A stretch of DNA of 64,000 nucleotides from an uncultured virus (IMG/VR IMGVR_UViG_3300042861_002374). Lineage: Varidnaviria > Bamfordvirae. The stretch lies in the IMG/VR virus record IMGVR_UViG_3300042861_002374. One strand, 5' to 3'. Positions 1 to 60,299 of the stretch are shown piece after piece. Numbering within the stretch: the first letter of the stretch is position 1; each line of letters begins with the position of its first letter. The translations under genes and the position numbers were made by a program. The notes under the pieces are model-generated. The model saw only the letters and a list, made by a program, of their open reading frames with translations. It was not told where the DNA came from and did no database searches.

Positions 1-12836
<12,836 letters not shown>

Positions 12837-19461: not shown

Positions 19462-19983
19462 ATGTATACTTATATTTTACTAGCTGTCGGATCAATGTTT
19501 TTGACAGTATGCTGGAAAATAGAAGCTCATGTAATAATTAAACAATCAATTATATCAAAATATAATAAATGGAAAAGGTTGAATCGTCTTGTATCTAAGA
19601 TGGAAAAGAATAATGCACGTATGTTTTGGATTAGTTTAAAACTGCTTATTAGAGCTCTTTATGTCTCATTTATTCAATATATTAATAATTCAGTACGTAA
19701 ACTTGATAATAAAACTTTTGAACTTACGTACGTGATTAATGGAAAAATGTATAAGATGATTGCGATACCTAAACGTGGTCCTAATCCTATTTTGCAAATT
19801 AGCAATGATTTACAGAATGATGTGACAGATTTTATACTTCCATATATGGGACCTCAATATGACTGGCATGGAAACAAATTTAAACCGGAGTTTTTTGGTT
19901 ATAAATCTCTGACCTTTGAACTTGGAGATGGAAGTGAACATACGTATGATGAAACTGATAACGTTGAATATAATGTAAAATAA
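19462..19983 (+). CDS. Hypothetical protein
   Basis: 173-aa ORF with hydrophobic N-terminus and DVTDFILPYMGP motif. Confidence 0.7.
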   Translation: MYTYILLAVGSMFLTVCWKIEAHVIIKQSIISKYNKWKRLNRLVSKMEKNNARMFWISLKLLIRALYVSFIQYINNSVRKLDNKTFELTYVINGKMYKMIAIPKRGPNPILQISNDLQNDVTDFILPYMGPQYDWHGNKFKPEFFGYKSLTFELGDGSEHTYDETDNVEYNVK

Positions 19984-20025
19984 AAATGATTTTATATTTA
20001 TTCTTTTTAGTATAAAATCAAAATC

Positions 20026-20696: not shown

Positions 20697-20725
20697 ATTT
20701 TTACACAAGAATATTGTGTAAAAAT
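20697..20725. terminator. Hairpin 3' of the vWA gene
   Basis: atttttacacaa-gaata-ttgtgtaaaaat, 12-bp stem. Confidence 0.65.
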
Positions 20726-20781
20726 AAATCTTAATGTGTTTTTCTCATCTGATAAGAGAAGTTAATTTAACATTTTCTTAA

Positions 20782-20968
20782 TTCAAAAAGGCGGAGGAAA
20801 AAAATCCAAATCCAAAGAAAATTTTGTAATAATTTCTTAAAATATTGGAAAAGAAAATGAAAAAGGAAAACCTTTTTTTTGCTCCTCCGCCTTTTTGAAA
20901 AGTTCGTACGAAAAATGATTTTTTCAGGAACGGGTATTTTTAAAACGCGTCTTACACACACACAAATT
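20782..20968 (+). repeat. Conserved non-coding inverted-repeat element, copy 1, upstream of zinc-finger gene
   Basis: Perfect 17-bp IR ttcaaaaaggcggagga (20782-20798) / tcctccgcctttttgaa (20883-20899). Homologous to the reverse complement of ~35215-35408. Confidence 0.9.
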
Positions 20969-21126
20969 AGAGATTTTTGCAAAAAGTGACTTTTATCAGA
21001 AAATAGTGACTATTTTCAATTTTTTTTGGACAATTTTGGACAATTTTAGACAATTTTAATTTACCAGAAAAAAGTTATCTTTATCTCTAAAAAATATTTA
21101 AAAACAAATGAACAAAATAAAACAAA

Positions 21127-22512
21127 ATGGAAAAATGTCAATTTTGCAATAACATGTTTGGAAATAAACAAATGTTACGCCAGCATCAGACTAAAACAAA
21201 ATATTGCCTAAAAATACAAGAAACTCAATACAAAGAGGAAGCTGAATCTTTAAAAGAATTAACTTGTCAGTTTTGCGGAAAACAGTGTAAAACTAAGTAT
21301 CTTTTAAGTAGTCACCAGACACAAGCAAAATATTGTCTCAAAATACAAGAATCTCAAAATTCTGAAAAAATGATAGTATCTTTAGTGACGTGTAAATTTT
21401 GTGATAAAAACTTTTCATGTAGGAGTTTTAATAGACATGATTTAACATGTAAGAAAAAACTTGAATTTATTATTAATGAAAAGACAGAAGAAAATATCAG
21501 ATTAAAGTTGAAATCACAGAATGATGAGAAAGATCAAGAAATAGCAATGCTAAAGTTAAAAGCCGAGAAAGATGAAGCAATTGGTTCAATATATAAAGCA
21601 TCTGCAGAAAATTCTCAGGCTACAGCTGAACGTGCGCAGGCTACGATAAACGAGATAGCAAAACAACCAACTTATCAAAAAAACAGTACAAAAAACATTC
21701 AAAACAATTTGATGATCTCAAATCTTACTCCTCTTGATTTAAGCCAAGCTCGTGTTGACAGTATAATAGATGAAAAATATACAAAAAACGATTTTTATGA
21801 AGGTCAGAAAGGAGCGGCCCAGGTTGTTTACAAATATCTTTCTACAGACTCAAATGGCAAGTCTCAAATAGTTTGTACTGATACAGAACGTGGTACGTTT
21901 CACCACATAGATGTTAATGGCGAACATGTTGTTGATTACAAGAATGTTCATTTGATAGATAGAGTACATTTACCTCTTAAGAGAAAAGCAAGTAAGTTTG
22001 CGGCAGAAGAATCAATAAAAAATCCAACTGCTTTTAAAGACATTGTTATGAATGAAACTTCTATCAGAGAACTAGAAGCAAAACCTGGTTTGTTCAATAG
22101 AACAATGGCAAAACTTACAGGAAAAAATTGTGCGAAACAACTCATTGGTCAACCAACTAATTTATCAATCACGAAAGAGTGGTTATTAGAAAATGCAAAA
22201 TTTCTGACCATAGAGCATATTTTAAGAGGTCCGGAGGGGTATGCGGATTATGCATTGTCTTATCCTCTAAACAACCGGCTTATTATTGATGACAATTATT
22301 ATGATTCCGGACATAAAGTTACATTTTTAAAGTATAAAGATTTTAATGGTGATATAATAGTAGACCTAAATGGCCAGTTTTTAGTAAAAATGATTATTGA
22401 TTCTCTTAATGATCAGAAGAAGAATTTGATGATTGAACACGACATAGTTGATTTTAATGAAGATACTATTTTTACGGATGAGTTTAGAAAGATTTTAATT
22501 GCCAATATATGA
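21127..22512 (+). CDS. C2H2 zinc-finger / coiled-coil protein, MIGE-like family, with duplicated C-terminal domain
   Basis: Three CxxC...H...C fingers, a coiled coil, an Asn-rich linker and IVCTDTER motif. Paralogous to 34046-35077. Confidence 0.85.
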   Translation: MEKCQFCNNMFGNKQMLRQHQTKTKYCLKIQETQYKEEAESLKELTCQFCGKQCKTKYLLSSHQTQAKYCLKIQESQNSEKMIVSLVTCKFCDKNFSCRSFNRHDLTCKKKLEFIINEKTEENIRLKLKSQNDEKDQEIAMLKLKAEKDEAIGSIYKASAENSQATAERAQATINEIAKQPTYQKNSTKNIQNNLMISNLTPLDLSQARVDSIIDEKYTKNDFYEGQKGAAQVVYKYLSTDSNGKSQIVCTDTERGTFHHIDVNGEHVVDYKNVHLIDRVHLPLKRKASKFAAEESIKNPTAFKDIVMNETSIRELEAKPGLFNRTMAKLTGKNCAKQLIGQPTNLSITKEWLLENAKFLTIEHILRGPEGYADYALSYPLNNRLIIDDNYYDSGHKVTFLKYKDFNGDIIVDLNGQFLVKMIIDSLNDQKKNLMIEHDIVDFNEDTIFTDEFRKILIANI

Positions 22513-22522
22513 AAATTAGACG

Positions 22523-22548
22523 TCTTCATATTCAAAATAATATGAAGA
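22523..22548. terminator. Hairpin between convergent genes
   Basis: tcttcatatt-caaaat-aatatgaaga. Confidence 0.65.
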
Positions 22549-22554
22549 AAGATT

Positions 22555-23121
22555 TTAATTACTCCAACACTTCCAGCACATAGGCTGATATTTTTCTTCA
22601 CAGCCTAAGTCTATCTGTTCTGAACCATCTCTGACAATTACTCTATCTTTTTTATCTATGTAAAATTTAGCGTTAATTATAGCTTTTCTGTCGCATTTTA
22701 CACAAATTGTTTTAATCTCTTCTAAAACATCTGCTATTTCAAAGAGTCTCTTTGATCCAGGAAAAAGTTTGGAACGGTAATCTGTTCTAAGACCGTAGCA
22801 AATTACCGGAATTGTTTTTGTAATTTCTCTCAAAGCGTCAACATTTTTTTCAGATAAGAATTGAGCCTCATCTACAAGAATACAATGTATATTTTCTAGA
22901 CAAATATTATCAAAATTATTCATTTTTGAATCCATAATAATATCTGCTTTAGCTCCTTCTATTGCACGAGAAGAGATCATGTCTTTACCAAATCGATCAT
23001 CTGCCTGTGGCTTTACAAGTAATACATTTTTACCTTGTGAACGATAATTCCACGCTACCATAAGTAAATTTGCAGTTTTAGAACTATTCATAGCTCCGTA
23101 TCGAAAGTAAAGTTTTGGCAT
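22555..23121 (-). CDS. tdk: Thymidine kinase
   Basis: YGAMNSSKT, LVDEAQFL, CYGLRTDY and Zn-binding CVKC...CWKC. Confidence 0.95.
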   Translation of the reverse strand: MPKLYFRYGAMNSSKTANLLMVAWNYRSQGKNVLLVKPQADDRFGKDMISSRAIEGAKADIIMDSKMNNFDNICLENIHCILVDEAQFLSEKNVDALREITKTIPVICYGLRTDYRSKLFPGSKRLFEIADVLEEIKTICVKCDRKAIINAKFYIDKKDRVIVRDGSEQIDLGCEEKYQPMCWKCWSN

Positions 23122-23188: not shown

Positions 23189-23947
23189 ATGAATGAATTT
23201 TTATGTCGAATAGGTTTAGTCGCTAAGCCATGTGACTCAACCCAAAACTATTTCATTAATCTTGGTGAAGTAATATGCAAAGATATAAGTAAACTTTATA
23301 ATTTACATACAGATATGCGTTTTTTGTGCGCTTTTAAAGCAAGAAAAGAAGGTGATATAGCATATCTAGATAATATTGAAGAATTGCTTGCAATACAAAG
23401 ACGATACAATATAGTAAACAAAATAACCATAAATGGTGTGGTCAAAAAAAAAATTATGAAATTACTTTCACCAGAGCTATATGATATAACATGTATGGTT
23501 CCTCTATTTACAGATAAGATTTGTCGATCTATAAAACCAAAAGGTGACAAAAATAATATAGTTATATTTATACTTTTTCCATATAGCGATCCTATTATAC
23601 GGGGAAAAATTATAGATAATTGTTTTAGCATATTAGGTAATAGAGAAAGTATTTTTTATGTATTAGGAGATTGTCATGGCCAAAATACTATCAGTACTTG
23701 CTATCTGAGTAGAAGATATCTTCTGACTTGTGAGATAGAAGATAAAAATATTATTCTTAGTAAATATGATGAGTTTCCAGATTGTATTTTAGATGCATTT
23801 AATATGATTAATTTTATGTTTCCAGACAAAAAAATGACTACTTATATAGGTGTTTCAAGAGAAGATATAACTAAGGTTATGAAACATATTCGTTTAATAA
23901 AAACACAAAAACTTATAGATAAAAAAGTATCTTTAATATGCGACTAA
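23189..23947 (+). CDS. Hypothetical protein
   Basis: 252-aa ORF, no motif recognised confidently. Confidence 0.7.
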   Translation: MNEFLCRIGLVAKPCDSTQNYFINLGEVICKDISKLYNLHTDMRFLCAFKARKEGDIAYLDNIEELLAIQRRYNIVNKITINGVVKKKIMKLLSPELYDITCMVPLFTDKICRSIKPKGDKNNIVIFILFPYSDPIIRGKIIDNCFSILGNRESIFYVLGDCHGQNTISTCYLSRRYLLTCEIEDKNIILSKYDEFPDCILDAFNMINFMFPDKKMTTYIGVSREDITKVMKHIRLIKTQKLIDKKVSLICD

Positions 23948-24658: not shown

Positions 24659-24729
24659 TTGACTTAACTAAAAAGATTTAATATTAAATCATTTTTATAG
24701 ATTATAAATCTTTTCATTTGTAAAGAAGT

Positions 24730-27075
24730 ATGCCACCGAAGAAGATCGACAAAGTCGATACGATATTAAAAAAACTTAAGAAGGATTTGAAAAAGCAAGA
24801 ATTAGCTGAAAAAAAACGTCAAGATAAGGAACGCGAAAAAAATTATCAAATTATTAAGCCTTTTCCTCTTTCTGAAGGAAATTTACGTGCAAACTTAGAA
24901 GAAGAACAAAAAATTAAAGCTCTTTTTGAAAAAATTCAAACTCTTACCGAAGAAGAATCAAAAACAGAATTAGAAAAGTTTTCAAAAGAAAAAGGTCTTT
25001 GGGGTAGAAAAAATCAATTTGAAATAATAATAACTACTCTACCCGAATCACTTTACAAAAATTTGGCTTTTGAATATTTAAATCAGAACAAGTCTCTTGA
25101 TAAATTTTGGGGGTCTTATACTAAAAGACATAGAATAGAGATTGATAAAGAGTGGGAAAAAAAGTTAGCTGATGATATAGAAAATGAAAGAAAGCAGAAA
25201 ATTTTAAATCAAATCATGCCAGAACCTGTCTTACCTGTTAAGAAACCTGTTGAGCCAAAAGATAAAAAAGGTGTCATAGAACTTGATTTTGATGGTAACA
25301 TAATAGAAAAGATTCCTACTGTTCTTAAACCTAAGACAAACCCTCCAATTGTACCAGAAGAAAAAATAAAAATTACACAGTATAAAGGATGTTTTGCAGA
25401 TCAGAGAGACATTCCTTGGTTAAAAGAAATGCCTTGGATGGAAAATGTTAAGAAGACTTTTATCGCAGCTCCACCAAATGAAAATAAAGATTTAATAAGC
25501 GAATACTGTTTCTTAAAAGAAAAGGTGCAAATAGGTGGTACTATTTGGTATCCGGTTAAAAAGAATTTTTCTTCTTTAATGTGCAATAGTTTTCGCACTC
25601 GGGATGGAAAAGTACTTACTGCAAAAATTAATAGTGGTAAAGAAGTGCGTATGCAAGTTGCTTACCTAACAACATCAGACAAATTTATTATACAAGATGA
25701 TGAAGTTTTTAATGCAGAAAGAAAATACATATATCAGAAAAATTTAAGTAGAGGAAAAGAAATTGAAAGACTGCTGAATTCTAAAGTAAATAAAAACGCA
25801 GAACAACTAACACGAGTTCGGTTATCCGAAATTTTAAAGAAAGTTGCGCCAGAAATAAAAGATTATGAAAGTGCAGAAACAAAATATATAACTGATGCTG
25901 TAAAAAAAATGGTAGAGATTTCTGTTACTACAAAAGATCTATTCAAAAATTTGGCAAATATTCAAGTATATTTAGAAAATCCTAATAGAGTATTTGCTCT
26001 TCGTGTTAAAGAATCCTATTACACAGCAGAGATTTTAGTTACACTTACACAAGAAGAAAAACTTCCAGAACTTTTTGATGATCCTGACACAACAGAAGAT
26101 AATATTCTGTTAATTACAAGTAAAATAAATAGAGAAATTAGTAATTTTATACAAAGAATGGGTGAAAATATGTATCAAAAAGAATACGTTACTGAAAATG
26201 TACCACTCAACCCATCTAGAATAGTTCCTGTTCGTTATAACCTTAAAAAATGGAAACATGGTTGTACAAATAAAGATGATGTAAAAGATATACCAGATGC
26301 ACATGTTGTTTATTATAAAGAAGATGGTCAAGTATACTGCTTACTTATATCTGATATATTCAAACAACTTAAGACAGAAAACCCATCAAATCCTATAACA
26401 GGTAAAAATCTTGATAAAGACTTTCTTCAAAGATTTACCGAAGTATACTCAAAATTTAATATCACCGAAACAGACAATTCTGATATTCCTACACCATCTG
26501 TTATTGTATCTCCTTCTCCAGTTAAAATATCTCCTAAAAAACAACTTCTTGCTCCTGAATTGCTAGATAAAATAATTAAGAATATTAACACATTATGGAA
26601 TGAATTATACCCGGAACAGTCAGAATCAGAGTCAGATGAGGAGGTAATAGTTGAAAAAGTAAAATCACCACCTACTAAAGATAAAATAGATAAACTTTTT
26701 GATTCATCTACCGACGATGATGATGATGATTCTAAAAAAGAAGAACGTGATCTGTTTGGTTCTTATACCGATTCTGAAAAAGATGACAAAGATGAAGAAG
26801 ATGATGAAGAAAAAGATGATGGAAATTCACCTGGAACCAGACTTACTATAAAAAAAGGATTTGTTTGTCAGAAATGCGAAAAAGATATAGACGTTAATAA
26901 AGCTTTAAAAACCATTATTGAAGCAAACGAAAAATTCCATCCTATCTACTTTTGTTGTGTCGTCTGTTTTGAAAATTATAATAATTGGCCTAAAACAAGG
27001 ATAAGAAAAAAGAGCAAAAATGTTGGCATAAATGGTGGCAGGAATGGTACTAAAGAAAGAAATAAAACAAAATGA
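24730..27075 (+). CDS. Large hypothetical protein with acidic tract and C-terminal TRASH/MYM-like zinc finger
   Basis: 781 aa. NPITGK motif, acidic region, CQKC...YFCCVVCF. Confidence 0.75.
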   Translation: MPPKKIDKVDTILKKLKKDLKKQELAEKKRQDKEREKNYQIIKPFPLSEGNLRANLEEEQKIKALFEKIQTLTEEESKTELEKFSKEKGLWGRKNQFEIIITTLPESLYKNLAFEYLNQNKSLDKFWGSYTKRHRIEIDKEWEKKLADDIENERKQKILNQIMPEPVLPVKKPVEPKDKKGVIELDFDGNIIEKIPTVLKPKTNPPIVPEEKIKITQYKGCFADQRDIPWLKEMPWMENVKKTFIAAPPNENKDLISEYCFLKEKVQIGGTIWYPVKKNFSSLMCNSFRTRDGKVLTAKINSGKEVRMQVAYLTTSDKFIIQDDEVFNAERKYIYQKNLSRGKEIERLLNSKVNKNAEQLTRVRLSEILKKVAPEIKDYESAETKYITDAVKKMVEISVTTKDLFKNLANIQVYLENPNRVFALRVKESYYTAEILVTLTQEEKLPELFDDPDTTEDNILLITSKINREISNFIQRMGENMYQKEYVTENVPLNPSRIVPVRYNLKKWKHGCTNKDDVKDIPDAHVVYYKEDGQVYCLLISDIFKQLKTENPSNPITGKNLDKDFLQRFTEVYSKFNITETDNSDIPTPSVIVSPSPVKISPKKQLLAPELLDKIIKNINTLWNELYPEQSESESDEEVIVEKVKSPPTKDKIDKLFDSSTDDDDDDSKKEERDLFGSYTDSEKDDKDEEDDEEKDDGNSPGTRLTIKKGFVCQKCEKDIDVNKALKTIIEANEKFHPIYFCCVVCFENYNNWPKTRIRKKSKNVGINGGRNGTKERNKTK

Positions 27076-27620
27076 TTTTTACAAAAAAAAACGTAAAAAA
27101 TAAAAAAATGACAAATCAAATACAACGCCAAAGTATGAACAAGTATGATTTTGAATTAGGCATTGCAGGAGAATGCTTAGTAGAAATGAATGATGGACAG
27201 TTAAAAAAAGTTTATAAGATTGAAAAAGGAGATATAGTGCAAACTGAGTTTGGTATAGCAAAAGTGTTATGCGTTCTTAAGTTGTACTGTAAGAACAATG
27301 AGAAGGATTTGATCGATGTCGCAAACATTTCATCTATACTAAAAATATCTCCTTATCACCCGATAAAGTGGGAAGGAAAATGGAATCATCCAGCAAAACT
27401 TTTTTCAAACTCATTTCGAAGACCATGTCCAGCTTTATATAATTTTTTATTGGATGGTAATGATCATAATATGATTATTGGTAACACTGTTGTTTCTACT
27501 CTATCTCATGGTCTAACAGGGGATTTACATCATTGGTATTATGGAACAGAAGAGGTAACTAAATTCCTTATGTCATGTCCAGGATGGAAAAATGGTCTTG
27601 TACAAACAGATGAGCTTTAA
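27072..27620 (+). CDS. Stand-alone Vint-type Hint domain protein (start possibly 27108)
   Basis: IAGECLVEMNDGQLKKV...GDIV, ISPYHPI, LYNFLLD, TLSHG and HWYYGT..V...L...PGWKNG. Confidence 0.8.
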   Translation: MIFTKKNVKNKKMTNQIQRQSMNKYDFELGIAGECLVEMNDGQLKKVYKIEKGDIVQTEFGIAKVLCVLKLYCKNNEKDLIDVANISSILKISPYHPIKWEGKWNHPAKLFSNSFRRPCPALYNFLLDGNDHNMIIGNTVVSTLSHGLTGDLHHWYYGTEEVTKFLMSCPGWKNGLVQTDEL

Positions 27621-33237: not shown

Positions 33238-33735
33238 TTAATATCTACGAAATACCAAAAACAGAACTACACCTGTTAATACAATAGTAGGTATATAGAA
33301 AGCCAGGAATTTATTCCAATCAATATGATCTATATTATTACTATCTTTCGTAGTTACAATTATAGGTTTTGAAAAGTATAAATACATAAACAATCCTACA
33401 GCTATAATAAAAAAAATTATAATAGGTATTATCATCTTGTTAAAGCGAGGAGGACCTTTCTCTGCACGTTTGCGCTTACCAATTCCGATTCCTTTTTGAA
33501 TACATTGTGACAAACTTCCTAGACTATCATAATCATTTGGTTTTTCTAATTTATTTCCGCAGTAAATTCTGCGTTCATCAATTGGTGCATATGGTCCTGC
33601 AAATTTTGGATCATAAGGCATGTTAAAACCTTTACCAAAACCTTTTTTCATGCAAGCATGTCGTGTTCCAAGAACACTTCTACCTGAAAGAAGTTCAGGA
33701 TCTTGTGAATTATTTCCACAATATATTGGTGGCAT
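33238..33735 (-). CDS. Two-TM membrane protein with duplicated YCGN motif
   Basis: IYCGN...C..KG.G.G twice, followed by two TM helices. Confidence 0.75.
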   Translation of the reverse strand: MPPIYCGNNSQDPELLSGRSVLGTRHACMKKGFGKGFNMPYDPKFAGPYAPIDERRIYCGNKLEKPNDYDSLGSLSQCIQKGIGIGKRKRAEKGPPRFNKMIIPIIIFFIIAVGLFMYLYFSKPIIVTTKDSNNIDHIDWNKFLAFYIPTIVLTGVVLFLVFRRY

Positions 33736-35077: not shown

Positions 35078-35214
35078 TTATTTCTGTTTATTTTCTCCTT
35101 AAATAAATATTTCTCATTTTTTTGAGAAATAACGAGAATCTAGTGATATTTTTGATACTTTTAGTATTAAAATTGTGTGTATTTTTATGTCGCTATCCAT
35201 CTCACCAAAACACA

Positions 35215-35408
35215 AAAATTGTGTGTTGAAGATTTTTTTTCACTGACCTTTCCGGATTTTTGAAAGTTTTTCCTCCGCCTTTTTCAAAAGTTCGGAGGAG
35301 CAAAAAAAGGTTTTTTGGTTTTCGCTTTTCTTTCCTAATATTTTTGAAAATTATTATAAATTTTCCTTTGGATTTGGATTTTTTTCTTTTCCTCCTCCGA
35401 CTTTTAGA
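35215..35408 (-). repeat. Conserved non-coding inverted-repeat element, copy 2, upstream of zinc-finger gene
   Basis: Shares gaaaaaaatccaaatccaaag (21/21) and aaaacct(7-8)gctcctccg with copy 1. IR arms at 35286-35300 and 35392-35405. Confidence 0.9.
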
Positions 35409-35610
35409 TTTATAATAATCATTTTTTTTGTTAAGTCCTCCGTTTAGTAAGCAGCCGCTGTGTATTTTCAAATCTATATTTTCCTCAAAATGAGAGGTTT
35501 TTAAAAAATATCTAAACGTTTTTTTACTGTATCCTATCACCAAGTTTTAACCATAAGTAATGTCATCTTCATATTTAGAAAAATAAATTGGTGCTTCTGT
35601 AAAAACAAGA

Positions 35611-37077: not shown

Positions 37078-38208
37078 TCAAAAAATAGGTTTATAAAAAT
37101 ATTGTGTTCCGTTAGTAAAAGGATTTATAATCTTACCAATTGCATCTTGAAAAGAATTGAATTTTCTTAATGGTACACCCTTTCCGTAAGGTACATCATC
37201 ATAATAGTACCATATTTTACCGTATTTTGCTATACATGTATAATGACATCTTCCATTATGAACAATTACTGCGTAAAAGACAAATTTTTGTCCGTTTGAT
37301 GTAGTAATATATTCATCCGGGTAAACAGGAGTATGACATAATTCCTTACGACCACCCAATTCCTCTGTAATCAATCTTCTAATATTGACAATTATAATAG
37401 GAGAATCTACTATTGAAGTAATTTTTATACATCGTTTGTATTTTTTACCATTGAATTCAGACTTCCAATATTCTTCATCTTCAATAATTCCACTATCATT
37501 TTTTTCTATTATCAAATCAGAAATATTGACTCCACTTTCTGGTAAGTCTAAAAGTTCAAATATACTAACTATATGAACTACCGAGGCGGTGCCTTCAATA
37601 CTACTTATTTCGGTACTTTTAGTATTGAAAAGGGGTTTGTTATCATTGCTTCCATATGTAATTATTTTTTTAGTTGCTCTTTTAACAGGAAGAACCTTAA
37701 ATAAATATCTTAAAAATTCACCAGAATCTGCTTCAGATCCTGTATGATATTCTTCTTCACCTTTAAACTCTTTACACGGTATACCTCTACAATGTATTAG
37801 TGATTTACGAAAGTCAGTACAATATTCAACTATTTTGTCACTTTTTCCAGTAATAGATTCAGCAATATATCTTAATTGTTTTTGTACTTCTTTTCTGTTA
37901 GTAATATCTGTATTCAGAGGGTTGCCACAGAACCTGAGTGTCCCATTTTTTTCAATTTCTTTTTTTCTTTTATCTAAATCTGTATATAACATATCATTAA
38001 TAAAATCTTTGGGACCTGCAAATAAACAAAACAAAGCAGTATCTAAATAACAACTGTTTGCAATCCATTTTAAAGGACGCGGAATAGACGGATTTTCCCA
38101 TTGAGATAGACCTTTTTCTAAATTTATGTAGTAACTCCTATTTTTTCTATTACTAAACTGTTTTTTCCAACACTTTGGATTCTTATCCATTTTATTATAA
38201 TACACCAA
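37078..38208 (-). CDS. WW-domain + USP (peptidase C19, CYLD-like) deubiquitinase
   Basis: One WW domain (W...YYIN...SQWENP), Cys box NSCYLDTALFCLF, His box HYTC...WYYYDD. Confidence 0.85.
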   Translation of the reverse strand: MVYYNKMDKNPKCWKKQFSNRKNRSYYINLEKGLSQWENPSIPRPLKWIANSCYLDTALFCLFAGPKDFINDMLYTDLDKRKKEIEKNGTLRFCGNPLNTDITNRKEVQKQLRYIAESITGKSDKIVEYCTDFRKSLIHCRGIPCKEFKGEEEYHTGSEADSGEFLRYLFKVLPVKRATKKIITYGSNDNKPLFNTKSTEISSIEGTASVVHIVSIFELLDLPESGVNISDLIIEKNDSGIIEDEEYWKSEFNGKKYKRCIKITSIVDSPIIIVNIRRLITEELGGRKELCHTPVYPDEYITTSNGQKFVFYAVIVHNGRCHYTCIAKYGKIWYYYDDVPYGKGVPLRKFNSFQDAIGKIINPFTNGTQYFYKPIF

Positions 38209-38235: not shown

Positions 38236-39621
38236 CTAAATAGGTTTGTAAAAATATTGTGTTCCCTGAGTATAAGGATCAATATTGTCAGGGTCTTTAG
38301 CAGCATCTTCAAAAGTTTTATATTTTTTTAATCGTTGAGGAGGATTATTATCATCATAATAGTACCATATTTTACCGTATTTTGCAATACATGTATAGTG
38401 ACCTTCGTTGTTAATAACTACTGCGTAAAAGACAAATTTTTGTCCGTTTCCTGTAGTAATATGAGTATCTGGGTAAATAGGAGTTTTACATATTCCCCCA
38501 CCCAATAGCGCATGAGTCAATCTTTTAAAACTAAAAATTATAATAGGAGATTGTTGTATTGAAGTAATTTGTATACGTCGTTTGTATACTTTACCATCAG
38601 CTTTAAACAGATTGTCAGTGGTGTAGTTGCCCATGCCATCTACAAGGCTTATTTCACCACTGTCATCTGTTTCTTCTATAAATTCAGAAATAGTGGTTCC
38701 CTGCGGTCGCACTTTCAAAAGTATGTCGTTATTAATCACATTAACTAGTGATATTTCCTCGAAATTACGAGATGTCATTGTAAGCTTATTCTTAGGAATT
38801 TCGTTGAAATCATTAGTTACATCATTAGTTCCATATGTAATTCTGGTTCGTACGGCTTTTTTAACAGGATGGAGAATTTTAAATAAATATGTCAAAAATT
38901 CCCCTGGATCTGCCATCTTTCCTGTATGATATTGATCCTCATCTCCCTGCAAAACTATACCAGCTTTAGGTCTGCAATTTGTTAGTGTTTTACGAAAGTC
39001 ACTACAATATTTAACTATTCTTTCGCTTTTTCCAGTAATAGATTCACCAATATATCTTAATTGGTTTTGTACTCTTTTTCTGCCAACAATATCTGTGTCA
39101 ATGGAGCTACCACAGAAAAAGGATGTATCACCAGTTTCAATTTCTTTTCTTTTTGTATATAAATCTGTATAGAGTATATCATCAATAAAATCTTTAGGAC
39201 CTGCAAATAAACAAAACAAAGCGCTATCTAAATAACAACTGTTTCCAACCCATTTTAAAACTCTATCCTCAAGAATTTCGTTGATAACCGGACTTTTAAC
39301 CGGACTTTTAGCCGGGTTTTCCCATCGAGAAATATTTAATGATTCATTTCTATAATAATAGTTACCACAATCGGTTACCCTAGATTCCCATCCAGGTGGT
39401 AAAGGATCAGGCTTTATAAATTTTGGTTGTTCCCATTGAGTTTCACCAGTAAGTGTATTTCCATAGTAAATATCATTACTTCCTTTTGCATGATGCATTT
39501 CCCATCCTTCTGGTGTGAGATAATTTGTTATTCCCCATTGAGACGTACCTTTTTCTACATTTATGTAGTATCGTCTTTTTCCGTTAGTGCTTAAAGCGGT
39601 TTTCCAACATTTTGGATCCAT
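38236..39621 (-). CDS. 3xWW-domain + USP (CYLD-like) deubiquitinase
   Basis: Three WW domains including LPPGWE...YYYRN...SRWENP; NSCYLDSALFCLF; GHYTC...WYYYDD. Confidence 0.88.
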   Translation of the reverse strand: MDPKCWKTALSTNGKRRYYINVEKGTSQWGITNYLTPEGWEMHHAKGSNDIYYGNTLTGETQWEQPKFIKPDPLPPGWESRVTDCGNYYYRNESLNISRWENPAKSPVKSPVINEILEDRVLKWVGNSCYLDSALFCLFAGPKDFIDDILYTDLYTKRKEIETGDTSFFCGSSIDTDIVGRKRVQNQLRYIGESITGKSERIVKYCSDFRKTLTNCRPKAGIVLQGDEDQYHTGKMADPGEFLTYLFKILHPVKKAVRTRITYGTNDVTNDFNEIPKNKLTMTSRNFEEISLVNVINNDILLKVRPQGTTISEFIEETDDSGEISLVDGMGNYTTDNLFKADGKVYKRRIQITSIQQSPIIIFSFKRLTHALLGGGICKTPIYPDTHITTGNGQKFVFYAVVINNEGHYTCIAKYGKIWYYYDDNNPPQRLKKYKTFEDAAKDPDNIDPYTQGTQYFYKPI

Positions 39622-49483: not shown

Positions 49484-50260
49484 TTACTTGTTGCGGCAAC
49501 GTTTAGTTGAGCGATTACGAACTTGTCCAGACTTGCATGGAACTAGCTTCTTAGCAGACTTCTTAGCAGACTTCTTGGCCGACTTCTTGGCCGACTTCTT
49601 AGCAGACTTCTTAGCAGACTTCTTAGCAGACTTCTTAGGAGAATTCTTGTCAGACTTCTTGCGACCAGCCGACCTCTTCTTACGGCAACGCTTGGTGGAT
49701 TGATCACGAACCTGACCGGACTTGCACGGAGCCCTTGACTTTCGTGTAGCAGACTTTCTTTTACCGGGCGACCTCTTATTACGGCAACGCTTGGTGATTT
49801 GGTCACGAACCTGACCAGACTTGCACGGCGCCCTTGACTTCTTGGCAGACTTCTTTCGACCGGCCGACCTCTTATTACGGCAACGCTTTGTAGATTGATC
49901 ACGAACTTGACCAGACTTGCACGGAGCCCTTGACTTTCGAGTAGCCGACTTTCGCTTCTTGGAAGACTTACTTTTCTTGGAAGAAACAGACTTACGACCA
50001 GCTGATCTCTTCTTTCTGCAACGTTTAGTGGATCTATCACGAATCTGACCAGACTTGCACGGAGCTCTCGATTTCTTTGAAGAAGACAATTTAACTTTAT
50101 TAGAACGAAGCTTTGTAATTAGACTAGACTTTTTTAGTCCGGTATATTTAATTCCTTTAGATTGTGCCAACTTTTGAAGTTGTGCCAAAGTATGTACTTT
50201 TTTCGACCGTGAACTTCGAGACGAACTTTTACGTGACTTTGCCATTTCTTTATTATACAT
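49484..50260 (-). CDS. Highly basic DNA-binding repeat protein with histone-H1-like tail
   Basis: K/R/S-rich. HeH/SAP-like N-terminal motif, five PCKSGQxRxxxTKRCR repeats and a (KKSA)n tract. Confidence 0.8.
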   Translation of the reverse strand: MYNKEMAKSRKSSSRSSRSKKVHTLAQLQKLAQSKGIKYTGLKKSSLITKLRSNKVKLSSSKKSRAPCKSGQIRDRSTKRCRKKRSAGRKSVSSKKSKSSKKRKSATRKSRAPCKSGQVRDQSTKRCRNKRSAGRKKSAKKSRAPCKSGQVRDQITKRCRNKRSPGKRKSATRKSRAPCKSGQVRDQSTKRCRKKRSAGRKKSDKNSPKKSAKKSAKKSAKKSAKKSAKKSAKKSAKKLVPCKSGQVRNRSTKRCRNK

Positions 50261-50699: not shown

Positions 50700-53600
50700 A
50701 TGATGTCTGAAACGCATACATGGGATATTTTGAAAGATCACTTTAAAAGAAAAGGTTTTGTGCATCACCAAACTGAATCATTTGATCATTTTATAAATGT
50801 AGGAATTCAAAAAATTATTACCGAGGAACCTGACATTGTAATGAACTCTAAATCAGGAAAAAATCCAGGATCTTATACTTCATATAAAGTATCATTTAGT
50901 AATGTTCATATTCCTCACCCAACTATTACAGAAGATACTCGAGTTCTTAGAAATTTTTATCCTTCCGAAGCGCGTCAGAGAGATTTGACTTATGATTCTC
51001 CAATCTATGCAACTGTCACAGAAACATTACAGATTGAAGGAAAAGAAACAGAAGTTAACCAACACGTGAGAGTAGTTTTAGGGCGTATTCCTATAATGAT
51101 AAGAAGCAGTAAATGTTATCTTACAAATATGACACCAGACGAAAGAATTTCAGCCGGAGAATGCGAATATGATCAAGGTGGATATTTTATTGTTAAGGGA
51201 AAGGAAAGAGTTTTAATATCACAGTTAAGAGGAGTCTATAATGTTCCGTTGGTTTTAGAACAGAGAACAGGTGATAAAAATATCTATTCTTGTGAAATGA
51301 GAAGTATGTCAGAAGAAACTGGACATTCTGTTCTTATTAGCGCTGTAATAGGAACTGATGACAGAACTTTATCTTTTTATCTGCCCTATATTAAGAATCC
51401 AATCCCAATAGGTGTAGTTTTTAAAGCAATGGGATATAGATCAGAACAATTTTCTGATTTAATTGGTCTAACTTGCGATAAAATGAATAAGTATATTAGA
51501 TTAATAATCAACGATTCGTTTTTTGTTGAGGAAGAAAACGACGGGTTTGATTTCTTTGTGAGCGAGAATCAAAGCATTATCTCAAAACAATTAGGAATAG
51601 ATGATTCAAAAAATATTACAAATGAGAACAAAAAAAGAATTTCCGATAAATTGACTTTATTATGGAAGGAACAAGATCAGTTAGAGTGGAAAACGAAATC
51701 TACACGAAACAACGCTTTAAAATATATAGGACAACATACTAATCACCCTATTAAAGAAGCGGAGAGAAAAGATTACGCAGAACAGGTTGTTGATAGCGAA
51801 ATTTTTCCTCACATGGGAGTAACTTCTAGTACCCGTGAGAAAGCTTATTTACTTGGTCATATGGTACATAAATTAATGGCTACATTACTGGGTTTTCGTA
51901 AACCAGATGATAGAGACAATTATATAAATAAACGTGTTGAATCTCCAGGAGTTTTATGTCATGAACTCTTTCGACAATTGTTTAAGAAATATATTGCGAC
52001 TATTGTAGCTACAATTGAAAAGAAAAAACAACTTCCAGATGTAATGAGTATCATTCCTCGTCTAACAGATATCACAAAAGGATTTAATCACTGTTTTGGT
52101 ACAGGTAATTGGGGTGTACCCAAAAATAGCTATGTTCGAGCTGGTGTAGCACAAATTTTGTCTCGTTTATCATATGGAGCTACTTTATCAAATTTGCGGA
52201 GAGTTTCTATTCCTGTAGGTAAAGAATCAAAAAATGCTGCAATTCGACAAATTAATCCATCTCAAATTATGTACATATGTCCAGTTGAAACACCCGAGGG
52301 AGCACCAGTTGGTATTGTTCTAAATTTATCTTTGCTCACGCGTATTTCTGATAGAATACCAACTGTATTAGTAAAAGAAGTGATCGAACTATGTGACAAC
52401 ATTTCACCTATAGAAAATCTTGAATGTTTTAAAGAGCAAACAAAAGTATTTTTAAATGGAATTCTTCTCGGATCAGCAGAAGATCCAAATGAACTTTTGG
52501 AAGAATTAAAGGAATTGCGTAGAATCAAAATGCTTCCATGGGACGTTTCCATTTCGTATGATAATATTGATGATGAACTTCACGTATGTTCTGATGAAGG
52601 AAGACTTTTACGACCTGTTTTTAAATTAAAAGATAATAAGTTAATTATCACAGAAACAGATGGAACAAACTGGGATGATTTGGTTGAAAAAGGAATAATA
52701 ACTTATATTGATAATATGGAAGCAAATAACTCTGTAATAGCTTTTCATCAAAAAGAATTAGGAAAATATAAGAACGACTATTGTGAAATTTCTCCTGCAA
52801 TGATGCTTGGAGTGATGGCATCTATTATTCCCTTCCCAGACCATTCACAATGCATCTTTAAAGATGAGCCAGTGTATATGGCTAATGGAACTGTGAAAAA
52901 AATATGTGACGTCCAAGTTGGAGATGAAGTAATCACATTCCATCCTGAAACACAACAACAAAGTATCACAAAAGTTTCACATACATATACAAATAAAACA
53001 GATAAACAATTATTTGAAATAACTACATTAAGCGGTCGAAAAATCACAGCTACTTTTGATCATCGTTTTATGACTTTTGATGGATGGAAACGTATAGAAG
53101 AAATTGAAGTTGGAAAAACATTGGTAGGTGTATCAACAGAACCTAAACCTGTTTCTAATTTAGTTGATGAGTATATAGTTCTTACCAAAGAGCAATTTAT
53201 TGAAAGATGTTTGAATGCTAAAATAGAAGAACATTTTGTAACAAAATACGCGTCTGAAATATCCTTTCCGATAAAAAGTACTGATACTAATTTATATATT
53301 GTAAGTCGTCTTTTTGGATTTATATCTACAGAATGGTGTTATCTTGGCTTTTCAGATCAAGGTGATTTAATACTAAATGTATACTTTACAAATGAACATA
53401 GTGCTAGTTTATTTAATGAAGATGCTGAAAGGTTAGGATTTAAGTATAAATGCATTTCCGACGTGGCAAAGTTTGTAGACTTATACGAATCTACTTATCA
53501 TTCTACAATAGAATATTCTGGATCATTTCCTTCATTGTTTATTGCGCTTGGATGTAACAACACTATTCAAGAGGGTAAATACAAACCTTTGCCAAATTGG

Positions 53601-59513: not shown

Positions 59514-60299
59514 ATGATTCACTTTTATTATATGGAAAATTGTGGGTATTGTGCAAAAGCAAAACAGGTTTTAGCTCCTGATATTGCTTCTGGTTTCGTA
59601 GTTATTAAAGACGCTAAAGAGGCTAAAAATGTTGGTGGGTTCCCTCACTTTGTTGAAACAACAACTGGTGCTACTCACACAGGATTTATGGCTGATAAAG
59701 AAAAACTGTTTGAAAAATTGGGAGCAAAGAAACCACATACATCAAAAGAAGACTATGCACAAGCGATGATTCACTTTTATTATATGGAAAATTGTGGGTA
59801 TTGTGCAAAAGCAAAACAGGTTTTAGCTCCTGATATTGCTTCTGGTTTCGTAGTTATTAAAGACGCTAAAGAGGCTAAAAATGTTGGTGGATTCCCTCAC
59901 TTTGTTTCAACAACAACTGGTGCTACTCACACAGGATTTATGGCTGATAAAGAAAAACTGTTTGAAAAATTAGGGGTAAAACAAAATAAACAAGTGCAAA
60001 CACATGCGCAAGCACAAACACATTCGCAAGCACAACAACAGGCGCAAGCACAACAACAGGCGCAAGCACAACAACAGGCGCAAGCACAACAACAGGCGCA
60101 AGCACAACAACGTTCGCAAGCACATCAACGTTCGCAAGCACAACAACAGGCGCAAGCACAACAACAGGCGCAAGCACAACAACAAGCATATCAGCGTTCG
60201 CAAGAACAGTCTAAAGAAGTTGAAAATTGTTCTTCTATTAATGGAGGATATTTAAGTTTAAAACAGACTTGGACCGAACAAAAAAGATATGTAGCATAA
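59514..60299 (+). CDS. Tandem glutaredoxin/thioredoxin-like protein (CGYC x2) with Gln/Ala repeat tail
   Basis: Near-identical domains at a 252-nt offset, each with CGYC and GFP; 18-bp AQAQQQ repeats follow. Confidence 0.8.
   Translation: MIHFYYMENCGYCAKAKQVLAPDIASGFVVIKDAKEAKNVGGFPHFVETTTGATHTGFMADKEKLFEKLGAKKPHTSKEDYAQAMIHFYYMENCGYCAKAKQVLAPDIASGFVVIKDAKEAKNVGGFPHFVSTTTGATHTGFMADKEKLFEKLGVKQNKQVQTHAQAQTHSQAQQQAQAQQQAQAQQQAQAQQQAQAQQRSQAHQRSQAQQQAQAQQQAQAQQQAYQRSQEQSKEVENCSSINGGYLSLKQTWTEQKRYVA

Follow-up and report, generated by a model that had tools for sequence, protein, structure and literature searches.

Two zinc-finger genes, each preceded by a long non-coding region, raise the question of what kind of unit a giant virus carries here and how its upstream DNA works. 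Both lie in a stretch of 64,000 nt (hereafter the window) from an uncultured lake-water NCLDV, and the original prediction took them for two copies of a dispersed, MIGE-like cassette in which a structured leader precedes the gene. MIGEs, reportedly first described by Santini et al. in 2013, belong to a small group of repeat units that abound in giant viruses and have no known mechanism. As outlined in parts of two sources, they consist of a zinc-finger ORF preceded by conserved non-coding DNA, with 6 to 20 copies per genome, and reside in Mimiviridae-type giant viruses, Mesomimivirinae and Aquavirinae (PMC4669402; bioRxiv 10.1101/299784).

Two zinc-finger cassettes in one window

The window carries several NCLDV hallmarks (RPB2 with inteins, TFIIB, P9 minor capsid and thymidine kinase), and no named isolate was found among its 120 best RPB2 relatives or in the clusters looked up. 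Using a regular expression on six-frame ORFs of at least 60 aa, C2H2-like motifs were detected in exactly two ORFs, as predicted, which we call genes A and B (Table 1). Both contain C-x2-C-x12-H motifs, and both match the Pfam zf-C2H2 family weakly, just under the cut-off. The gaps 5' of these genes measure 444 and 533 nt. No other of the 43 gaps in the window is as long, and they reach 7–8 times the median intergenic length of 63 nt, in agreement with the long leaders of the original prediction.

Table 1. Coordinates of the features of cassettes A and B in the window
Feature	Position	Strand	Description or basis
Cassette A arm 1, purine word ending GGCGGAGG	20782..20797	+	Perfect 16-bp inverted repeat with 20884-20899
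Cassette A 21-mer common with B	20797-20817	+	Exact repeat
Cassette A conserved AT-rich core centre	20798..20883	+	Best-conserved block in 49 unique cores
Cassette A arm 2, CCTCCGCC word	20884..20899	+	Reverse complement of arm 1
Cassette A 10-bp perfect palindrome	20903..20912	+	Sequence
Cassette A CACACA box	20954..20964	+	Sequence
Cassette A copy-specific tandem repeat, 10-nt unit TTTTGGACAA x3.4	21024..21057	+	Tandem Repeats Finder score 61
Cassette A promoter-like word AAATATTT	21092..21099	+	28-35 nt 5' of ATG
Cassette A gene, 461 aa	21127..22512	+	Fingers of C-x2-C-x12-H-x6-C type, helical middle, C-terminal region
AT-rich hairpin, likely 3' limit of cassette A	22523..22548		Sequence
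Cassette B arm 1, TCGGAGGAG	35392..35400	-	Inverted repeat; profile match 35411-35264
Cassette B conserved AT-rich core centre	35301..35391	-	Repeat search, shared 21-mer
Cassette B 21-mer	35386-35366	-	Exact repeat of A 21-mer
Cassette B arm 2, CTCCTCCGA	35292..35300	-	Inverted repeat
Cassette B third arm, GGCGGAGG	35272..35279	-	Can pair with arm 2 in place of arm 1
Cassette B CACACA...TGTGT palindrome	35209..35227	-	Sequence
Cassette B copy-specific palindrome, 9-bp arms TATTTCTCA, 6-nt loop	35105..35131	-	28-54 nt 5' of ATG
Cassette B gene, 343 aa	34046..35077	-	Two fingers, one long helix, C-terminal alpha/beta domain

The two upstream regions are homologous in the same orientation relative to the gene (120 nt at 81% identity, E 2.5e-25, BLASTN). 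The repeat search pairs 20797-20880 with 35303-35386 (84 nt, 80%), and a profile of the core matches 20778-20922 in A and 35411-35264 in B. A homology of about 190 nt had been proposed; the aligned span is about 145 nt, with short islands only beyond it. All the leader elements named in the original prediction lie where it placed them, including the inverted-repeat arms, the CACACA boxes and the identical 21-mer, which occurs exactly twice in the window (0 expected from 100 shuffles). When the region from 20740 onwards was used as BLASTN query, matches to relatives began at query positions 38–50, so that homology of cassette A to its relatives starts approximately at arm 1 (20777-20789).

The upstream region is built in layers: the core comes first, then a CACACA palindrome, then repeats or palindromes specific to the copy, and finally, about 30 nt 5' of the ATG, a promoter-like word of generic type. 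The core is made of GGAGG-type and CCTCC-type inverted words which flank a conserved AT-rich centre. In many relatives a third GGAGG-type arm occupies the place of the 10-bp palindrome of cassette A, and cassette B likewise has a third arm, while palindromes of the form CCACACAC...GTGTGTGG recur in the leaders of distant family members. The tandem repeat of cassette A lies 70–103 nt 5' of the ATG, and its word recurs in the gene's own ORF no more than expected by chance. Direct repeats of at least 10 nt near the gene were found in 29 of 46 cassettes, whereas the controls gave 2 of 35 (other genes) and 3 of 46 (shuffles); the period is 9–11 in 24 of the 46 related cassettes, and the copy-specific arrays are described by a period of 10–11 bp. 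The copy-specific palindrome of cassette B overlaps the word AAATATTT (35112-35105). This word does stand 28–35 nt before both ATGs as predicted, but AATATTT is present upstream of 12 of 37 window genes, so AAATATTT is a general promoter-like word and not specific to the cassette. Two antisense ORFs over the core (20767-20982 on the minus strand and 35260-35415 on the plus strand) were rejected as coding because their frame is not conserved, and no open frame through the core is consistent across relatives.

The upstream element as DNA or RNA

The leader had been described as structured, and a reading as RNA would make the arms a long hairpin in a 5' UTR or a small RNA, read by the protein or the translation machinery. 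Folded as single sequences, the leaders of A (-38.9 kcal/mol, z -4.5) and B (-30.4 kcal/mol, z -3.2) were matched by none of 200 shuffles. In cores L081 and L084 a T stands opposite a G at one junction position, a pairing that works only in RNA, and in one marine metatranscriptome run RNA contigs of relatives overlap the core (152 nt, at a depth of 2.7 summed over relatives), so the core may be transcribed. However, the opposite strand of the A leader folds equally well (z -5.6), and the alignment of 49 cores gave no consensus pair by RNAalifold. Complementarity at the arm junctions was found in 6 of 29 evaluable cores, compared with 6.4 expected if the arms vary independently, so the proposed structure showed no covariation. 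Furthermore, three of the 49 cores (L013 and two in L066) have no arm 2 and still precede intact genes, the promoter-like word lies downstream of the core near the ATG, and no Rfam family reached its gathering score in the upstream region. An RNA leader is very unlikely on these data, and the upstream element probably works as DNA.

Linkage of core and gene across relatives

To what extent the core travels with the gene can be read from uncultured giant-virus contigs. The v1 21-mer was found at 11 loci, each with a family ORF downstream of it. The v2 29-mer was found at 62 loci, where the family ORF is intact in 56 and frameshifted in 1; the exceptions are three solo cores of identical sequence, one locus without a family gene within 847 nt and one cut by the contig end. 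Altogether, 68 of 73 leader-first matches are followed by a family gene at fixed distance and orientation, a count from which only exact duplicates were removed, so that near-identical loci of related assemblies remain and independence is overstated. With the core profile, 100 matches were obtained from the window and 85 loci, 49 of them unique; a family ATG follows each at about 250–430 nt. Leader and gene are inherited as a block, and leaders without the gene exist but are rare. Distant cassettes whose leaders can no longer be aligned retain the same design, which indicates long co-inheritance of leader and gene. No match was found by BLASTN in the phage collection.

Core identity is 0.86–0.91 (near 0.88) in all bins of protein identity, from below 0.3 to 0.9, while the rest of the leader and the CDS drop to the level of alignment noise, about 0.76. 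The idea that the leader is better conserved than the coding sequence is therefore correct for the core; the remainder of the leader is at noise level like the CDS.

Could the core of about 120 bp be an element in its own right, a miniature inverted-repeat element inserted repeatedly, whose association with the gene is secondary? Inverted arms do bracket it, it stands alone before an unrelated gene in L114 and L173-178 and also occurs solo in L126, and it is doubled in tandem in L001/L010. Such an origin is hard to reconcile with the tight linkage described above, with the design kept by distant members whose leaders cannot be aligned, and with the lack of a visible target-site duplication. 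Moreover, the solo cores are found at the very site that a full cassette occupies in the window, consistent with loss of the gene. We consider an independent miniature element most improbable.

Cassettes are also found in tandem arrays (L033/L034, L070, L031, L012), and chimeric v1/v2 cores occur in L003, L004 and L006. Compared with the two copies in the 64-kb window, related contigs contain 3–7 copies per 141–279 kb. Copies on the same contig are mostly old, with 26–85% amino acid identity and one pair at 91%, and no burst of recent copying was seen among them.

Gain and loss at syntenic sites

Cassette A is absent from all four evaluable relatives of the thymidine-kinase locus (L086, L087, L088 and L199). 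At locus B, the closest relative (L177) keeps the gene order and contains neither core nor gene. Two genome types that are less closely related carry a solo core there, 45 nt 5' of the same neighbour gene. The genes most similar to A (76% identity) and B (62%) lie among neighbours of which none is shared with the window. Cassettes are thus gained or lost at syntenic sites, and the pair is not an old duplication fixed in place, the alternative named in the original prediction, since both orthologous sites are empty in the closest relatives. The window offers a clean pair of copies for study, with empty syntenic sites for both and a solo-core remnant at one site elsewhere. As for the reach of the locus A comparison, the thymidine-kinase protein search returned 80 loci, of which three (L199-L201) were viral relatives and the cellular-looking rest were excluded, and a degenerate 29-mer from the thymidine-kinase end had no match in metagenome contigs. 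Two joints that skip the cassette were seen in read-derived contigs, with sides of 21–22 letters, too short to trust.

Hallmarks of transposition, which the original prediction had not seen, were likewise not found in the Pfam searches or the window sequence. No transposase or integrase domain was detected by Pfam in A or B, and the first 25 families listed for 110 relatives were finger and coiled-coil families only. Neither window copy has a repeat bracketing the whole unit, both inverted arms being inside the upstream region, and no flanking duplication was seen around either, where intergenic divergence blurs the exact limits of insertion. With empty syntenic sites and relatives in unrelated contexts, the cassette is a patchily distributed discrete unit.

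A plainer reading is an ordinary viral transcription-factor family that expanded by co-duplication with its promoter, without mobility or self-recognition, in which the core would be a shared enhancer or timing element. The age of the within-genome copies, the tandem arrays, the promoter-like word at the place where other genes have it and the lack of transposase, target-site duplication and terminal repeats all suit this reading. Nevertheless, it does not agree with the empty sites and unrelated contexts, with the solo and doubled cores, or with upstream regions of such length, and the constancy of core identity as the proteins diverge is not predicted by plain co-duplication. An ordinary transcription-factor family is accordingly a fairly unlikely account of these loci.

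The multicopy non-coding leader, the zinc-finger ORF tightly linked to it, the patchy presence and the lack of a transposase make up the MIGE-like architecture that had been predicted. Compared with the published description, the window ORFs have zinc-finger motifs, are preceded by conserved non-coding DNA, occur in more than one copy with patchy presence and are accompanied by no known mobility gene. The host here is an uncultured lake-water NCLDV of unassigned family, which may belong to a different lineage as the original prediction had it, and the comparison with the copies of PgV and CeV is one of architecture. In a search of BFVD with the C-terminal tail, a protein of CeV-01B (A0A0N9QRA7) gave a weak match (E 0.072, probability 0.97, TM 0.42). 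Cassettes A and B are very probably MIGE-type units, and they represent no new kind of element. Relative to the outline in those parts of the sources, the layered upstream region, the phased repeats of 10–11 bp, the predicted dimeric coiled coil and the D5-like tail are additions.

A zinc-finger protein predicted to be dimeric

Proteins of the family carry two or three fingers, followed by a coiled coil predicted to be parallel and dimeric and by a conserved tail. In protein B, the long helix spans residues 49–163 and the alpha/beta domain residues 172–343. In protein A, the C-terminal region contains a duplicated subdomain of helix and sheet, to judge from relatives that match query halves 1–140 and 120–270 separately. 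The predicted CTDxxR motif is present in both, as CTDTER at residues 250–255 of A and CTDTSR at 223–228 of B; across 110 relatives its Asp never varies, and the conservation of Cys and Arg is 90% or higher. The fingers fold in the AF2 model (pLDDT 93.7), and C2H2 fingers were found by profile search against PDB at E 2.8e-17.

The homodimer prediction scored 0.50, compared with 0.00 for the best of three controls; by a rough calibration (own alignment used), the mark was reached by 20 of 30 solved one-chain pairs and 1 of 23 solved single chains. Repeated runs shared at least 59% of contacts, with a partner pLDDT of at least 75 and an interface in register over residues 70–145. The coiled coil may pass this test merely by its likeness to solved coiled coils.

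The residues at the canonical base-reading positions of the fingers are Asn, Gln, Thr and Ser, which in the zinc-finger recognition code suggest A/T-rich triplets and not GGA, so the fingers are probably not the readers of the GGAGG arms. Finger 1 is near-identical in copies with different repeat words, and hence does not set the word alone.

These features can be joined in one explanation, which we hold to be slightly better than an even bet: two MIGE-type copies, each made of a DNA-level control region and a gene for a dimeric zinc-finger protein, and each addressed to itself. The upstream region would act as double-stranded DNA, not as an RNA leader. A parallel coiled-coil dimer would set two finger modules on the phased repeats of the copy's own upstream region, and the protein would thereby regulate its own gene. 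The invariant core might be recognised by the same reader in every copy, for which the conserved C-terminal domain and a shared viral factor are the candidates. Recombination between cores and hairpins, and not transposition, may account for the spread and turnover of copies. Taken separately, binding of the protein to its own upstream repeats has an even chance, and autoregulation as the main effect is possible but doubtful. The upstream anatomy of A and B makes direct tests of protein binding feasible. Should the protein bind its own repeats, the family would amount to a naturally occurring collection of programmable DNA-address modules.

The C-terminal tail and D5-type primase-helicases

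The original prediction had proposed to compare the CTDxxR domain with nuclease folds; none was found for the C-terminal domain in fold searches, which pointed instead to a weak likeness with the region before the helicase in D5/ASFV-type enzymes. Seven entries of the ASFV primase-helicase are the top whole-domain matches of the tail, the best at Z 7.8 (rmsd 4.1, 129 residues aligned, model residues 13–176 on chain residues 380–539). Helical-bundle entries score about 2 Z lower, except for two entries of one designed protein (6.9 and 6.7). The wide fold search gave Z 5.8–6.8 to the ASFV enzyme, Foldseek against PDB gave E about 0.9, and in BFVD at least eight D5-like or P4-type primase-helicases match the tail (probability 0.77–1.00, E 0.026–0.37). 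None of these scores (Z under 8) reaches significance by the standard of the tool that gave it. The fold search with the whole B model was swamped by coiled coils.

Like the tail, the pre-SF3 region of ASFV C962R-type proteins (PDB 8iqh, 9ivf, 8wvz) has three short helices, a three-stranded sheet and long helices, and 129–134 residues align over the whole tail domain at Z 6.7–7.8. ASFV residues about 370–540 are what we take to be the D5N collar domain. In contrast, sequence identity to the tail is only 7–8%, and the isolated C-terminal parts of A and B matched no Pfam family at E up to 10. Unlike in D5 and C962R, no primase or SF3 helicase is attached to the tail, which lies behind zinc fingers and a coiled coil and forms the C-terminus of both proteins; Pfam detected no helicase domain in either. 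A narrow search, covering one genome for each prokaryote species, gave no close relative of the C-terminal domain; a passage of the preprint mentions bacterial homologues (bioRxiv 10.1101/299784). The tail thus weakly resembles, in predicted structure, the region that precedes the helicase in D5/ASFV-type primase-helicases, and plain autoregulation leaves this D5-like tail unaccounted for.

The tail would find a role if the cassette were an origin-like module, in which phased repeats and AT-rich core form a replication start or helicase-loading site and the dimer serves as an adaptor whose D5-like tail docks on the primase-helicase. Tandem repeats beside an AT-rich conserved centre, next to a gene for a predicted DNA-binding protein, are what such a module would look like, and the ASFV and BFVD matches agree with it. 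If one common machine reads the site, a core that stays constant whatever the divergence of the protein would also be expected. Iteron-type replicons offer a parallel, plasmid origins in which tandem direct repeats of about 20 bp and an AT-rich segment lie adjacent to a rep gene. The cassettes resemble them in layout, with tandem repeats that adjoin an AT-rich segment and a neighbouring gene for a predicted dimeric DNA-binding protein, but differ in that the repeats are 10–11 bp long, there is no skew signal, and many copies occur per genome.

However, neither GC nor AT skew flips at 20.8 or 35.3 kb, where skew tracks the coding strand. When 30 related cassettes were examined together with flanks of 2.2 kb, a rise across the cassette was seen in 11 for GC skew and in 13 for AT skew; this test is weak, being confounded by coding strand. 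Both sites are empty in the closest relative, the fold scores do not reach significance, and the protein has neither a helicase domain nor a Pfam match in its tail. We regard the origin-like module as unlikely. The more specific proposal, that MIGE cassettes are portable helicase-loading sites, in which a helically phased array private to the copy and the shared AT-rich core are paired with a zinc-finger dimer whose tail plugs into the virus's primase-helicase ring, is somewhat less likely again; the cassettes would then seed unwinding at many addressable points of the genome, and this unwinding may serve replication or the recombination-dependent copying of the cassettes. To our knowledge, replication starts in these viruses are still unmapped. 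If the helicase-loading proposal is true, it would explain both the role of MIGEs and where these viruses may start replication, and if the tail contacts a D5-type helicase, the family would provide a handle on replication start in them.

The likely 3' end of cassette A

The AT-rich hairpin that likely limits cassette A lies between the stop codons of two convergent genes, A (22512) and thymidine kinase (22555), and the "hairpin rule" of Mimiviridae gives the context for a hairpin at this place. Similar palindromes stand 3' of other genes in the window.

Two zinc-finger cassettes in the window

C2H2-like motifs are found in just two ORFs of the window, gene A (461 aa) and gene B (343 aa), and among 43 gaps (median 63) none is longer than the two upstream of these genes, of 444 and 533 nt. 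Each of the two gaps contains a conserved non-coding block (core), oriented alike with respect to its gene, and the two cores are alike over 84 nt without gaps at 80%, over 120 nt at 81% (E 2.5e-25) and over about 145 nt by profile. An identical 21-mer occurs twice in the window, where no occurrence is expected. Moreover, proteins A and B have the fingers and the C-terminal region in common (24–34% identity, E 4e-16), and both window copies carry the same core variant, although the genes belong to different subfamilies. All elements listed in the original prediction are present in the window. A and B are a real, non-chance pair of cassettes of the MIGE type, a transposase-less giant-virus repeat unit composed of conserved non-coding DNA and a zinc-finger ORF.

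Elements of the cassettes and other features of the window (core elements as read from the alignment of 49 unique cores)
Feature	Position (strand)	Description
Gene A	21127–22512 (+)	Zinc-finger gene of cassette A
Gene B	35077–34046 (−)	Zinc-finger gene of cassette B
Core, arm 1	First element	Purine word, GGAGG or GGA-repeat type
Core centre	After arm 1	About 85 nt, AT-rich, best-conserved part
Core, arm 2	After centre	CCTCC-type word, complementary to arm 1
Third arm	After arm 2	GGAGG-type, often present; in A, a 10-bp palindrome instead
CACACA box	Downstream of core	
Copy-specific repeat, A	21024–21057	10-nt unit ×3.4
Copy-specific palindrome, B	35131–35108	9-bp arms
AAATATTT	About 30 nt before ATG	Related words upstream of 12 of 37 window genes
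Depth interval, core	20749–20855	
Depth interval, coding	21712–22139	Conserved C-terminal coding part
Gene downstream of B	33238–33735 (−)	Small; protein starts MPPIYCGNN, C-terminal membrane helix
Collagen-like ORF	3–12836 (−)	Open-ended, >4278 aa; 9-nt periodic repeats, hundreds of copies
RNA polymerase subunit 2 gene	50700–59480 (+)	2926 aa, split by several intein or Hint-type insertions
Tandem paralogues	37078–38208 and 38236–39621 (−)	Each with WW and ubiquitin C-terminal hydrolase domains
32-nt block	19980–20011 and 24667–24698	91% complementary between sites; in promoter regions of genes 20026 (+) and 23933 (−) / 24730 (+)
AT-rich perfect hairpins	20698–20724; 22523–22548	Directly after stop codons; of vWA gene; common to gene A and thymidine-kinase gene
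Vint/Hint ORF	27072–27620 (+)	182 aa, domain E 3e-28; 4-nt overlap with end of next entry
781-aa ORF	24730–27075	
In-frame tandem repeat	59944–60223	18-nt unit ×11 inside ORF 59514–60299
In-frame tandem repeats	Within 49535–50091	12-nt and ~99-nt units inside ORF 49484–50260

Organization of the upstream region

The upstream region is layered. The core centre has two sequence variants, and chimeras of both exist in three related loci of metagenome or viral contigs (L003, L004 and L006). Within the last 130 nt before the gene, a direct repeat of at least 10 nt is found in 29 of 46 unique cassettes, compared with 2 of 35 other window genes and 3 of 46 shuffles, and in 24 of the 46 its period is 9–11 nt, which corresponds to one helical turn. 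In 19 distant cassettes, retrieved by peptide motif, the leaders are unalignable with the core profile but follow the same plan, with inverted words of the GGAGGAGGAG type and of a further type, CCACACAC...GTGTGTGG palindromes and tandem repeats near the gene. Some distant arrays are much larger than those of the window copies: a unit of about 17 nt is repeated about 12 times within 300 nt upstream of the family gene in L184 and L197, and 20-nt units stand four times before the gene in L183 and L185.

The original prediction described a structured leader, and this part found no support. The window cores do fold better than shuffles (z −4.5 for A and −3.2 for B), but the opposite strand of core A folds equally well (z −5.6). 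RNAalifold gave no consensus base pairs for the core family, and complementary variable bases at the stem junction occur in 6 of the 29 cores open to scoring (the pattern used missed the other 20 of 49), where independent variation would give 6.4. The second arm is absent from three cores, each before an intact gene; no consistently open reading frame runs through the core, and no Rfam family matches it at the Rfam threshold. From the above, the arms are conserved as words, and judged by sequence they are most simply putative protein-binding sites on DNA; "leader" is probably the wrong term. In one metatranscriptome, RNA contigs of relatives show a weak overlap with the core, so its transcription is possible.

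Linkage of the core with the gene family

With protein A as query, 74 loci were retrieved from viral contigs, several to a contig, and protein databases contain hundreds of relatives: 403 at E ≤1e-3 and, for the C-terminal region, 415 clusters at 50% identity. By blastn and the core profile, which has 100 strong matches (49 unique), the core lies immediately upstream of almost every family gene found. Searches started from the leader alone bear out the proposed linkage, since a family gene almost always comes next: in 11 of 11 loci with the 21-mer and in 57 of 62 loci with a 29-mer from the other core variant (56 intact ORFs and one frameshifted), counts which are not independent events because many loci come from related assemblies and exact duplicates alone were removed. 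Among the other 29-mer loci, three have a solo core before another gene (all three one sequence), one lacks a family gene within the 847 nt of sequence present and one is truncated by the end of its contig. A single family gene is preceded by two complete tandem cores, about 260 nt apart, in L001 and L010.

In sequencing runs X1–X3, the core and the conserved C-terminal coding part are covered about 20-fold more deeply, by summed contig depth, than the flanking thymidine-kinase gene (about 1100–1200 versus 55 in X1), and assemblies break at the cassette, indicating that many related copies coexist in lake samples.

Conservation and turnover of the cassettes

Core identity stays at 0.86–0.91 in every protein-identity bin, from below 0.3 up to 0.9, while the remaining upstream region and the coding DNA fall to about 0.76, the noise level of alignment scoring. 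Thus, the claim that the leader is better conserved than the coding DNA stands for the core and fails for the rest of the upstream region. This uniformity is due either to strong constraint or to exchange between copies, and the chimeric cores indicate that exchange happens.

Syntenic sites without the cassette, which the original prediction proposed to look for, exist for both copies. Cassette A is present at the thymidine-kinase locus in none of four evaluable relatives: the thymidine-kinase gene, which abuts A in the window, is directly followed, after a 170-nt gap, by the vWA gene (upstream of A in the window) in L087, by an unrelated 224-aa ORF in L086 and by the next gene in L088 and L199. 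At locus B, the closest relative (L177) keeps the neighbour gene order with a 274-nt gap that contains neither core nor gene. Two more distant genome types (L173–176 and L174/178) have a solo core 45 nt before a homologue of the gene downstream of B, which this core may now serve.

No flanking gene of the window recurs beside the closest relatives of gene A (76%) or gene B (62%). Within a contig, most copies are old (26–85% identity, with one pair at 91%). Many A-type cassettes end in an AT-rich hairpin followed by words also found before the next core, by which the unit limit is marked in head-to-tail arrays; no flanking repeat was found at the unit limits of the window copies. The cassette behaves as a discrete unit that turns over slowly, unlike a burst-type transposon.

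Predicted structure of the encoded proteins

AlphaFold models are confident (pLDDT 93.7 for whole B; pLDDT 95.1 and pTM 0.89 for its C-terminal domain alone). The B model contains two fingers, one helix of about 115 residues and the C-terminal domain, which is made of three short helices, a three-stranded sheet with the CTDxSR motif and three long helices; the helix-sheet part is present twice in A. One Asp is invariant among 110 relatives, with Gly, Gly, Cys, Arg and Asp near-invariant.

A B homodimer is predicted with a parallel, in-register coiled coil (residues 70–145). Its score is 0.50 versus 0.00 for the best of three controls. This mark is reached by 20 of 30 known homo-pairs and 1 of 23 proteins solved as single chains, counts that apply roughly given the custom alignment used, and coiled coils may pass it by likeness alone. 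The runs have at least 59% of contacts in common, with pLDDT of at least 75.

The C-terminal domain has no Pfam family and no significant Foldseek match in the PDB. Among solved structures, the ASFV primase-helicase alone (residues about 370–540) spans the whole domain, in seven entries at Z 7.8 to 6.7, about 2 units above the helical background. In a viral model library, metagenomic giant viruses supply the top matches, which are family members (E 1.6e-12), next come many C2H2 proteins of Mimiviridae-like viruses, and D5-like or P4-type primase-helicases appear repeatedly at weak E-values. As a consistent but sub-threshold lead from these matches, the tail may derive from, or mimic, the region before the helicase in D5-type enzymes, which we take to be the "D5N collar".

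Comparison with MIGE and proposed function

In published descriptions, MIGE is a zinc-finger ORF after a short non-coding piece, with as many as 20 copies (PgV has 12, CeV-01B has 6), and its mode of spread is unknown (PMC4669402; bioRxiv 10.1101/299784). The architecture and behaviour of the window cassettes match this outline, in agreement with the predicted MIGE-like module. One protein of CeV-01B gives a structural match too weak to decide on homology to those copies; the likeness to MIGE is one of architecture and behaviour.

The idea that the cassettes are replication origins fails to find support here. In the window, skew follows the coding strand without a flip at either cassette, and of 30 related cassettes taken with 2.2 kb on either side, 11 show a rise in GC skew across the cassette and 13 a rise in AT skew, in a short-range test confounded by gene orientation (upstream flank mostly co-directional, 17 of 30; downstream flank often opposite, 14 of 30). 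The best reading is that a dimeric zinc-finger protein would dock on the upstream region as DNA; the boldest is that the cassettes would play a role in helicase loading.

The window and its virus

The source virus is an uncultured NCLDV. The window encodes the giant-virus hallmarks RNA polymerase subunit 2, TFIIB, a TBP-like protein, minor capsid protein P9, thymidine kinase and a dNMP kinase. No named isolate was found among the best 120 polymerase relatives or in the clusters looked up, and the stretch around the cassettes is found mainly in lake-water metagenome runs. The window is AT-rich, with G+C of about 28–31% outside the collagen-like repeat gene and about 45% inside it, and this ORF dominates the skew profile.

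In RNA polymerase subunit 2, Pfam found Intein_splicing in three stretches, plus Hint and LAGLIDADG_3 (one insertion with a LAGLIDADG domain). The Vint/Hint ORF may represent a C-terminal Hint-type module of the 781-aa ORF, separated from it by a split or a frameshift. The two hairpins resemble Mimiviridae 3'-end hairpins. The promoter region of the thymidine-kinase gene, upstream of 22555–23121 / 23189–23947, holds AAAATTGA, which we take to be the Mimiviridae early-promoter word. The WW and ubiquitin hydrolase paralogues are 71–82% alike in DNA across several blocks.
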